NCBI GenBank assembly: GCA_001783065.1
Contig: MFQN01000011.1
Coordinates: 1 to 60,829 of the forward strand
Length of the DNA: 60,829 nt
Origin: Candidatus Magasanikbacteria bacterium RIFCSPLOWO2_12_FULL_43_12
GTDB lineage: Bacteria; Patescibacteriota; Patescibacteriia; Magasanikbacterales; UBA922
Reading direction: 5' to 3'
Part shown: in pieces, positions 31,995-33,188 of the stretch
Layout of the letters: each line of letters starts with the position of its first letter
Numbering within the stretch: the stretch's first letter is position 1
Made by a program: the position numbers and the translations under genes
The notes under the pieces: generated by a model
Told to the model about the DNA's origin: nothing
Seen by the model: only the letters and a program-made list of their open reading frames with translations
Database searches by the model: none

Positions 31995-33188
31995 TCAATG
32001 TATCTCACTCGTCTTCATCCCCACCCAATCCGCCACCACTTCTTTAATGTGTTCAACACCGACCTCAATCCACCCTTTATCGCCCTTTTTCGCCGCTGAA
32101 TATTCTTCAATCTCTTTCACTTTATCAACAATTTTTTTTCTGACTGAAACCAATGTTTTTTCATCTTTTGTTTTCTCTTCTTGCGAATGAAGCGCGACCA
32201 ATTCTTTTTGCAAACGGTTCATCTCTTCGCCCAAATCACTCTTACTGCCGCTAATTTTCCCGGCCGCGCCGTGAAGCAGGGCGACGGCGTGATCAACCGG
32301 CAAACCTTCTTTAACATTAACCATGGCCGCCGCTTCGTCCATTACATCAATCGCCTTGTCCGGCAAACGCCGGCCTTTGATATATTCGTGTGACAACCGC
32401 GCCGCGGCCTCAATCGCCTCGTCAGTAAATTTAACCTTATGGAATGTTTCGTAATTCTTTTTGATGCCGTGCAAAATCAGAATTGTTTCGGCGACTGTCG
32501 GCTCGTCAACCAAAACCATTTGGAACCGCCGCGCCACACTTTCATCCGGAGCGATAAATTCATTATATTCTTTTTCCGTGGTAGCGCCGATAAGTTGTAA
32601 ATCGCCACGGGCAAGCGCGGGCTTGAGAATGTCGGAAAAGTTCACCGCGCCCTCCGCGCCCCTGGTTTGCATCACGGTGTGGATTTCGTCAATAAACAAG
32701 ATGATTGTGCGGTTGGAAATTCTGATTTCATCAACGATTTTTTTCACGCGTTGTTCAAATTCTCCGCGATACTTGGTGCCGGCCAATAGTTCGGAAACGC
32801 GCAAAGACAAAATTCTTTTGTTCCGCAAGACCTGCGGCACATCGCCGGTAACAATGCCCATTGCCAATCCTTCAACAATCGCGGTTTTGCCGACTCCCGG
32901 CGGTCCGGCTAAAATCACATTATTTTTAGTTCGGCGCGTCAGCACTTGCGTTACGCGCATAATTTCTTCTGTCCGTCCGACCACTGGATCAATTTTACCC
33001 TCTCTCGCCAAAACAGTCAAGTCAACGGCAAAGCCGCCGAGACAGCCGACACCACCACCGACATTTTTGGTAGTGAAAGATGTTGTCTCCCCGCCGCGGC
33101 GTTTATAAAAAAAATACATTGTCACGCCGACCATTAACAAAACCGAACCGCCGTAGCGCAGGATTTCGGGGAAAGATGTAGTGTCCAT
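31995..33188 (-). CDS. Membrane-anchored Clp/Hsp100-family AAA+ ATPase containing only the D1 module (ClpB/ClpC N-terminal half)
   Basis: 397 aa. N-terminal transmembrane helix ([16 protein letters not shown]). [45 protein letters not shown] (Walker A), [11 protein letters not shown] (Walker B), [29 protein letters not shown]. It ends at [13 protein letters not shown], which corresponds to the very start of a D2 module. No D2 is encoded downstream. Confidence 0.7.
   Translation of the reverse strand: [397 protein letters not shown]

Follow-up and report, generated by a model that had tools for sequence, protein, structure and literature searches.

The contig MFQN01000011.1 of Candidatus Magasanikbacteria bacterium RIFCSPLOWO2_12_FULL_43_12 (the window, a 60.8-kb stretch of DNA analyzed over its whole length) carries on its minus strand, at 31995..33188, a complete gene for a Clp/Hsp100-type AAA+ ATPase. 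This ATPase consists of the first nucleotide-binding module (D1) alone, preceded by a hydrophobic N-terminal helix, a predicted membrane anchor. Reading frame, domain content, family relationships, the ratio of nonsynonymous to synonymous substitution rates (dN/dS, omega) and the recurrence of the protein on 18 contigs all bear on the nature of the gene, which is almost certainly real, functional and D1-only by design. Our combined reading, to which we assign a probability of roughly 55%, is that it encodes an autonomous, ClpP-independent, membrane-tethered hexameric D1-type unfoldase or extractase of the candidate phyla radiation (CPR)/Patescibacteria. A first-pass annotation of this DNA had already proposed a single-ring, membrane-tethered Hsp100-like architecture, with a recent truncation as its alternative; the family-wide architecture, the selection acting on the gene and the lack of the second module (D2) support the former.

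Domain content and limits of the D1 module

In the open reading frame (ORF) listing of the window the gene starts with ATG and comprises 397 codons plus a stop, as earlier described, and the motif strings quoted by the first-pass annotation were all found in the translation. The alignment with the first nucleotide-binding domain of ClpB/ClpC, also claimed there, was confirmed by matches in Pfam, NCBIfam and the PDB. Pfam placed an AAA domain at residues 91-205 (2.7e-14) and the Clp-specific AAA_lid_9 at residues 232-294 (1e-28); the same scan of the 397-aa protein gave no match to Clp_N (PF02861), AAA_2 (PF07724), ClpB_D2-small (PF10431), Peptidase_M41 or AAA_lid_3. The NCBIfam models for ClpB, ClpA, ClpV, ClpK and ClpG were strongly matched over their D1 portion alone, the ClpB model with 359 bits, where the cutoff for the whole protein is 1232. 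A sequence search of the PDB returned Thermus thermophilus ClpB (6e-88), and with ClpC of Staphylococcus aureus and Bacillus subtilis a single continuous alignment was obtained (query 48-395 to ClpC 161-490), spanning D1, the coiled-coil M-domain and the segment that follows it. Identity to canonical D1 was approximately 45-57% over the large and small subdomains. When the predicted structure was compared with the PDB by Foldseek, D1 chains of ClpC and ClpB were again the top matches (7abr_A, 3.2 Å over 348 columns; 9jvp_E, 1.9 Å over 341). As judged from its sequence, the protein is unmistakably a derivative of a ClpC/ClpB-like D1. A role in anti-phage defence, or an origin as a phage AAA+ protein, was considered and rejected: PADLOC and PHROGs yielded generic matches alone (at the P-loop level to IetA and TRIP13, and to a generic phage Clp family), and the gene lies in a housekeeping context.

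An AlphaFold2 (AF2) model built from an 88-sequence alignment (mean predicted local distance difference test score, pLDDT, 81.6; predicted template modelling score 0.72) shows an N-terminal helix (residues 6-30) joined to the alpha/beta core of D1 by a disordered, Gly-rich tether (31-47). After the lid comes a connector of low confidence, which leads into a helical hairpin (320-367); the last elements are a strand (374-376) and a helix (378-389), both with pLDDT >90. On the minus strand of the window, the helix corresponds to 33099..33173 and the tether (residues 31-48) to 33045..33098; pLDDT reaches 94 in the former and falls below 50 in the latter (31-47), which varies in both length and sequence in the alignments. 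The large alpha/beta subdomain of D1 (residues 49-231; 32496..33044) was delimited by the Pfam AAA match and by the ClpB and ClpC D1 structures in the PDB. It contains all the ATPase and pore-loop motifs of a D1 module, and these are strictly conserved in the family alignment of 88 sequences, to which the motif, tail and anchor counts given below also refer. Thus K101 and T102 of the Walker A motif GPPGVGKT (G95-T102; 32883..32906) are invariant, as are L164, F165, D167 and E168 of the Walker B motif IILFIDE (32685..32705) and the sensor-1 residues T203/T204. Pore loop 1, GTKYRGEFE (32754..32780), which carries Tyr140, aligns with AGAKYRGEFE of ClpB; T138, K139, Y140, R141, G142, F144 and E145 do not vary. 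The tandem trans-acting arginine fingers R220 and R221 (RRFQ; 32526..32531), likewise invariant, align with R322/R323 of T. thermophilus ClpB, which are required for ATPase activity and oligomerization (PMC4239642).

The small (lid) subdomain begins with residues 232-295 (32304..32495), the region of the AAA_lid_9 match, which includes the motif LPDKAID (L275-D281, invariant). It is followed by a short coiled-coil hairpin of ClpC length (residues 296-372; 32073..32303; AF2 helices 320-339 and 343-367) and by a strand and a helix (residues 373-397 plus the stop; 31995..32072) modeled at pLDDT 92-95, with the tail W-x-G-x-K-x-x-E-I-H-stop. That the reading frame ends at the D1/D2 boundary, as the first-pass annotation had noted, is borne out by the conserved stop, the AF2 model and the alignments. 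The same annotation took the last segment for the first strand of D2, and here it was mistaken. In canonical proteins the coiled coil sits as an insertion in the D1 small subdomain, which is closed by the strand and helix that come after it (PMC4023160); the AF2 model shows this same arrangement, and the protein is therefore a whole D1 module rather than D1 plus a stub. The engineered T. thermophilus ClpB fragment known as NBD1-M (nucleotide-binding domain 1 with the M-domain; aa 141-534) ends one residue past the Trp that aligns with W388.

The stop is tightly positioned within the family, as 76 of the 88 members end exactly 9 residues after the conserved Trp (W388), and the C-terminus reads [ED][IV]H in 58. 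The proline of the junction motif WTGIP, invariant in 48/48 canonical genes, has given way to K, D or E in the family and is retained in just five of its members. The coiled coil, in turn, is present in 48 members and cleanly deleted in the remaining 40, giving rise to forms of 328-363 aa; it is thus an accessory part. Whether the tail, of fixed length and with E-I-H at its end, might dock onto some partner is a matter of speculation.

Family conservation and the search for D2

A search of 5.8 billion clusters returned at least 120 at 52-96% identity to the protein, with lengths of 283-492 aa (nearly all 324-411); among the matches listed, the named clusters were almost all from Candidatus Magasanikbacteria or the 'Patescibacteria group', and many were located on contigs of 50-310 kb. 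A family profile, run against 1.84 billion representatives at 50% identity, gave about 12 end-to-end matches (329-440 aa), the named ones including members from Candidatus Uhrbacteria (OGL78728.1) and Candidatus Doudnabacteria (MCA9375677.1). Members at 43-49% identity have kept the N-terminal hydrophobic helix and stop within approximately 12 residues of the same conserved Trp. The architecture is common to more than 100 protein clusters at 43-96% identity, from Magasanikbacteria, Uhrbacteria, Doudnabacteria and other Patescibacteria.

The gene is under strong purifying selection. Compared to its closest relative (locus L001, GCA_016207245.1; 87% nucleotide and 96% amino-acid identity), 134.5 synonymous and 20.5 nonsynonymous differences were counted, which correspond to a dS of 0.80, a dN of 0.023 and an omega of 0.028. 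By segment, omega was 0.08 in the anchor (0.078 for the helix of residues 6-30), 0 in the linker (residues 31-48, with 8 synonymous and no nonsynonymous changes), 0.007 in the D1 core, 0.025 in the lid, 0.10 in the coiled coil, the most relaxed part, and 0.04 in the tail. The identical 397-aa protein is also encoded by 18 contigs that were assembled independently from ENA and Joint Genome Institute samples. The stop is thus no product of misassembly or of a frameshift error, for which the first-pass annotation had proposed a check of read coverage. The bare absence of D2 is the sole point in favor of viewing the gene as a pseudogene, a recent truncation or an artefact of a full-length clpB/clpC. 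The stop position kept in more than 100 clusters, the low omega, the recurrence of the exact protein and the lack of D2 remnants in any frame all speak against this view; together with the finding that none of 14 related loci holds a contiguous D1-D2 gene, they reduce its probability to a virtually negligible level, and the recent truncation once suggested for this gene is not borne out.

The absence of D2 in any frame, which the first-pass annotation had noted downstream of the gene, was corroborated for the whole window by tblastn: residues 546-857 of Escherichia coli ClpB, used as a D2 probe, gave nothing above noise across the 60.8 kb. Neither was D2 detected within ±10 kb of the gene at any of 14 distinct family loci (the window, L001, L004, L006, L008, L009, L010 and L091-L097), at least four of which were newly recovered when genome and metagenome contigs were scanned with the protein. 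The canonical loci that came from the same scans served as a control. With the same probe, D2 was found right after D1 in 75/77 loci from reference genomes and in 75/79 from metagenomes; the six exceptions are all cut by a contig end, so that D2 is present at 150/150 intact canonical loci. The comparison of related loci that had been proposed thus gave a contiguous D1-D2 gene at 0/14 family loci as against 150/150 canonical ones, and the recommended look for D2 or a full-length clpB/clpC elsewhere turned up none in the window or within ±10 kb in the relatives. A contiguous or adjacent D2 is thereby ruled out.

Several other database matches were discarded upon inspection. L027, L016 and similar loci, which match from near the N-terminus of the query and might have been membrane-anchored full-length intermediates, encode ordinary ClpC proteins with Clp_N domains. 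The long proteins P0121-P0131, with profile scores above those of some family members, proved to be fragments, duplications of D1 in tandem or odd fusions rather than close two-ring relatives, and P0157, at first sight D1-only, is a fragment of a normal ClpC running on into D2. Among the odd cases, P0125 (694 aa) has a D1 lid and AAA domain fused to the C-terminal part of Cas_Csd1, and P0131 (1022 aa), P0123 and P0122 contain two or three tandem D1-like modules; these four could be assembly chimeras or genuine multi-D1 proteins.

Predicted membrane anchoring, proposed mechanism and rival explanations

The first-pass annotation had placed a transmembrane (TM) helix where the N-domain usually lies. 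The part of this claim that stands is that a helix replaces Clp_N and is hydrophobic family-wide; for the ortholog in the window, the TM call is weaker than was implied. A hydrophobic helix occupies the N-terminal position in all 88 members and in 10 distant ones. The mean Kyte-Doolittle (KD) value of the best 19-mer is at least 1.6 in 77 of the 88, and the family median of the Hessa-scale insertion free energy (dG) of the best 17-mer, a crude additive estimate, is -0.06 kcal/mol (≤1.5 in 74/88). The most hydrophobic 17-mer of the soluble D1 body, taken as a control, never fell below 6.2. The flanks of the helix differ in mean net charge, which is -1.1 on the N-terminal side and +2.5 over the 12 residues on the C-terminal side; in the window protein the hydrophobic core is followed by KRR. 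In the distant members the hydrophobicity of the helix is conserved and its sequence is not, as expected from a lipid-facing anchor and not from a protein interface. The family-wide hydrophobic helix, the charge asymmetry and the conservation of hydrophobicity without sequence lead us to predict a single-pass anchor of N-out/C-in topology, and the protein is very probably attached to the membrane.

With regard to possible clients, genes for polytopic envelope-glycan enzymes recur near the D1-only gene. In the window, the gene immediately downstream (30485..31894, minus strand) encodes a 469-aa PMT_2/EpsG-like protein with about nine TM helices (Pfam PMT_2, 31.2 bits vs. a cutoff of 26.1). A PMT_2/EpsG-like gene lies within two genes on the same strand at five of the 14 loci (the window, L008, L009, L010 and L092), upstream or downstream of the D1 gene, and the wider context is of two different kinds. 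A Wzy_C-type polytopic protein takes the same position in the distant locus L094 (intergenic gaps of 10 and 3 nt) and in L097. One or the other is therefore found at 7/14 loci, in at least four different gene contexts. Large single-TM proteins, CARDB-like or unannotated, are also recurrent neighbors, a CARDB-like one being adjacent at four loci. The association with glycan enzymes is suggestive and not obligatory. No protease, adaptor, second AAA+ protein, D2 or DnaK system was found as a recurrent operon partner among the family loci.

These observations can be combined into the following model. The N-terminal helix would span the cytoplasmic membrane with its N-terminus outside, and upon ATP binding the subunits would assemble into a hexameric ring at the inner face of the membrane, where confinement to two dimensions would compensate for the weak self-association of an isolated D1. 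The substrate-entry (N-terminal) face of D1 would be held some 18 residues away from the bilayer and point at it, as in FtsH and Msp1. Via Tyr140 the ring would grip membrane or membrane-proximal proteins by tails or loops exposed to the cytoplasm, or would engage envelope proteins that are nascent or stalled, and would thread, unfold or extract them in an ATP-driven manner without ClpP. The gene context suggests that clients or partners might be sought in cell-envelope assembly, among the polytopic glycan enzymes and the large anchored surface proteins. We infer hexamer formation, threading and membrane insertion; that the ring works autonomously, with no D2 supplied in trans, is probable, and the chance that it acts on membrane or envelope proteins we put a little short of even.

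The ClpP-docking loop of ClpC/ClpA-type partners is located in D2. Having no D2, the protein has no such loop or other known ClpP-docking element, and the label 'Clp protease ATP-binding subunit' is probably wrong; database records of family members bear only automatic names of this kind ('ATP-dependent Clp protease ATP-binding subunit ClpA/ClpC'), which suggests a systematic mis-annotation of proteins without the ring that binds ClpP. A motor made of D1 alone is nevertheless plausible, as the isolated NBD1-M of T. thermophilus ClpB is a fully active cooperative ATPase which oligomerizes in an ATP-coupled manner through the same tandem arginines (PMC4239642).

Several points weigh against the model. 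The helix of the window ortholog is itself marginal (dG +2.75 kcal/mol, mean KD approximately 1.5) and stands at the weak end of the family. D1 is usually seen as the weaker motor in ClpA and ClpB. No operon is conserved throughout the family, and half of the loci, including the closest relative L001, have no glycan-enzyme neighbor. The D2 search covered about 21 kb of each ~1-Mb genome; over all the loci together, fewer than one unlinked D2 gene would be expected to fall within this span. Finally, the isolated ClpB NBD1-M reached just trimer-sized oligomers in solution (PMC4239642).

The marginal helix of the window protein, which includes Gly, Ser, Thr and three Tyr residues, leaves some room for viewing the N-terminal segment as an oligomerization, amphipathic or partner-binding helix of a soluble or peripheral single-ring ATPase. 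The helices of the family as a whole are strongly hydrophobic, by the dG and KD values given above; aromatic residues lie at both ends, the charge asymmetry fits the positive-inside rule, and hydrophobicity kept without sequence conservation in distant members is the signature of a lipid-facing anchor, all of which makes a soluble protein quite improbable. The main rival to the autonomous ring is a split two-ring Hsp100, in which a D2 protein encoded elsewhere in the genome would stack under the D1-only protein in trans. We retain it in this position since bacterial ClpB has been reconstituted in trans from separate NTD-NBD1-MD (N-terminal domain, D1 and M-domain) and NBD2 parts (Beinker 2005, cited in PMC7343390; PMC4239642), and the limited span of the D2 search, noted above, also favors it. 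Gene fission, however, normally leaves the two halves adjacent in some lineages, and D2 was within ±10 kb at none of the 14 diverse loci. Moreover, the junction has been remodeled and not simply cut (the Pro of WTGIP is lost, and a family-specific tail of fixed 9-residue length ends in EIH), an anchor has been substituted for the N-domain, and the M-domain is lost in 45% of the members. These changes point to an independent evolutionary path, and a split enzyme is on balance unlikely.

An additional scenario is that the protein is not autonomous and serves as a substrate-delivery or regulatory ATPase that docks by its E-I-H tail onto FtsH, another protease or the neighboring polytopic glycan enzyme. 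The conserved, fixed-length C-terminal tripeptide does recall the tails by which other AAA+ unfoldases dock, FtsH is encoded in the same genomes, and polytopic enzymes are recurrent neighbors. Yet nowhere is a protease or adaptor gene a recurrent neighbor, the tail is in part made up of positions that are hydrophobic in canonical proteins as well, and the partner would be hypothetical; we regard such a role as rather improbable. FtsH itself is present in the window as a separate, canonical 609-aa ORF (18453..20282, minus strand) 12 kb away from the D1-only gene, so that the latter is not an FtsH substitute. This FtsH is 66% identical to that of L096, a locus from a Magasanikbacteria metagenome-assembled genome of the GW2011 series, in which the ftsH gene lies three genes upstream of the family member.

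Taken together, we tentatively suggest that CPR/Patescibacteria possess a third class of Clp/Hsp100 protein: a natural D1-only single ring, tethered to the membrane by six N-terminal helices and autonomous without D2, ClpP or N-domain, that would act as an extractase or unfoldase of membrane and envelope proteins and be coupled to neighboring glycan-assembly enzymes and surface proteins. To our knowledge, work on the self-sufficiency of D1 has until now been limited to engineered fragments. If the proposal is true, a naturally selected D1-only ring would show that D1 can be a self-sufficient motor in vivo and would supply structural and mechanistic studies with a minimal, membrane-tethered Hsp100. 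CPR bacteria are ultra-small, their cell surfaces are central to an episymbiotic lifestyle, and little is known of their proteostasis networks; an unrecognized quality-control activity for membrane or envelope proteins in these organisms would also be indicated.

Gene context and comparison with known systems

The relatives at approximately 53-70% identity share with the window a syntenic upstream trio that encodes an 81-aa membrane protein, a class-I methyltransferase and a UPF0102 protein, and in these relatives NusA is encoded a few genes downstream. In the window, the UPF0102 (YraN-like) and methyltransferase ORFs (33391-33912 and 33809-34360, minus strand) overlap: the longest UPF0102 ORF starts with TTG and shares about 100 nt with the final part of the methyltransferase ORF upstream of it. 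On identical contigs gene callers use a shorter, 155-aa start, which still leaves an overlap of about 50 nt. The first-pass annotation had described about 100 nt of AT-rich repeats and then a membrane-protein gene downstream of the ATPase, and this is indeed what was found. The 100-nt AT-rich spacer after the stop contains a tandem repeat, TATTAGTA, with an 8-nt unit in 5.6 copies (31943-31990), which can also be read with a period of 17; an intrinsic-terminator-like hairpin on the strand of the gene was not found in this stretch. The gene that follows is the PMT_2-like one described above.

Two copies of a small element of about 119-138 nt, in direct orientation (30355-30473 and 33210-33347), bracket the block formed by the D1-only ATPase and the PMT_2-like gene, and one of them lies upstream of the ATPase start codon at a distance of 21 nt. 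The copies have 16-nt terminal inverted repeats (CTGTCATTGCGAGGAG ... CTCCTCGCAATGACAG) and 86-nt cores that are 99% identical. As RNA, the element would form a long hairpin (-72 kcal/mol, z = -5.8). No match to it was obtained from Rfam (a scan of the whole window returned no Rfam family); there are no further copies in the window, and no counterpart upstream of the gene in L001, whose protein is 96% identical. The element looks like an insertion resembling a miniature inverted-repeat transposable element or a repetitive extragenic palindromic sequence. In L008 (7657-11167) and L010 (8239-11044) the gene order is UPF0102, PMT_2-like, ATPase, as against UPF0102, ATPase, PMT_2-like in the window (30485-33188). 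The swapped order, in a block that is flanked in the window by the two elements, hints at a repeat-associated rearrangement.

Other observations concern single loci or a few of them. The L008 contig (CAYQNA010000005.1) is titled 'uncultured Gammaproteobacteria bacterium' and yet carries a CPR-type syntenic cluster (81-aa protein, methyltransferase, UPF0102, PMT_2-like protein and a D1-only ATPase of 63% identity); its taxonomic label is probably wrong. In L006 (GCA_964621085.1), where the ATPase is of the short form, the heat-shock operon hrcA-grpE-dnaK-dnaJ (3435-7793) ends 2.2 kb upstream of the family gene with one oppositely oriented gene in between, an arrangement seen at this one locus only. 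YidC (60KD_IMP) is encoded 3-8 kb from the family gene at four loci (L091, 16327-17073; L092, 6853-7605; L095, 18170-18934; and the P0012 locus), at least two of whose contexts differ; this proximity, which is not compelling, may reflect inherited synteny or hint weakly at function.

No description of a natural D1-only or a membrane-anchored Clp/Hsp100 protein was found in the literature searched; where a paper on TM7x mentions clpB/clpC, the genes are those of its bacterial host and not of the CPR organism. Textbook accounts recognize two-ring Clp/Hsp100 proteins (D1+D2) and single-ring, D2-like ones (ClpX, HslU, Skd3). From ClpC/ClpB the family protein has retained the D1 subdomains, the Walker A and B motifs, the pore loop KYRGEFE, the tandem arginine fingers, the LPDKAID lid and a coiled-coil insertion of ClpC length. 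Unlike them, it has no Clp_N, no D2 (AAA_2/ClpB_D2-small) and hence neither the ClpP-binding loop nor the main D2 motor; the position of the N-domain is taken by a hydrophobic anchor, 45% of the members do without the coiled coil, and the C-terminal tail is remodeled. The domain boundaries are almost identical to those of the engineered T. thermophilus ClpB NBD1-M (PDB 4hse), which is a soluble laboratory truncation with the long M-domain of ClpB, whereas the family protein is the product of a natural, selected gene, anchored and with a short or absent M-domain.

With ClpX, HslU and Skd3/human CLPB the protein would share the organization of a natural single-module Clp/Hsp100 unfoldase working as one hexameric ring. 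Class I of these proteins comprises D1 and D2, and class II (ClpX, HslU) a single module homologous to D2 (PMC5415569); the module of Skd3/human CLPB is of the NBD2 type as well (PMC7343390). The family protein is D1-type, as indicated by AAA_lid_9 and by its best matches, and not D2/NBD2-type. On its predicted domain content it is consequently a protein that fits neither class, having one module where class I has two, and that module being D1-type where class II has a D2-type one. ClpX and HslU, furthermore, dock to peptidases, and a docking element is not evident here.

The likeness to FtsH is an analogy of architecture: FtsH has an N-terminal membrane anchor and a cytoplasmic AAA+ ring with a membrane-facing pore, and it acts on membrane proteins. 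It differs in its two TM helices, periplasmic domain, classical-clade AAA module and fused M41 peptidase, and is not a homologue. The closest functional analogy, drawn from architecture alone, is with Msp1/ATAD1, which combines a single AAA ring with one TM helix at its N-terminus, lacks a protease domain and extracts membrane proteins (PMC7018516; PMC12793716). Msp1/ATAD1 is eukaryotic and belongs to the classical/meiotic AAA clade, and is thus not a homologue of the Clp D1; if the proposed function is true, the D1-only ring would be its bacterial, Clp-derived counterpart.

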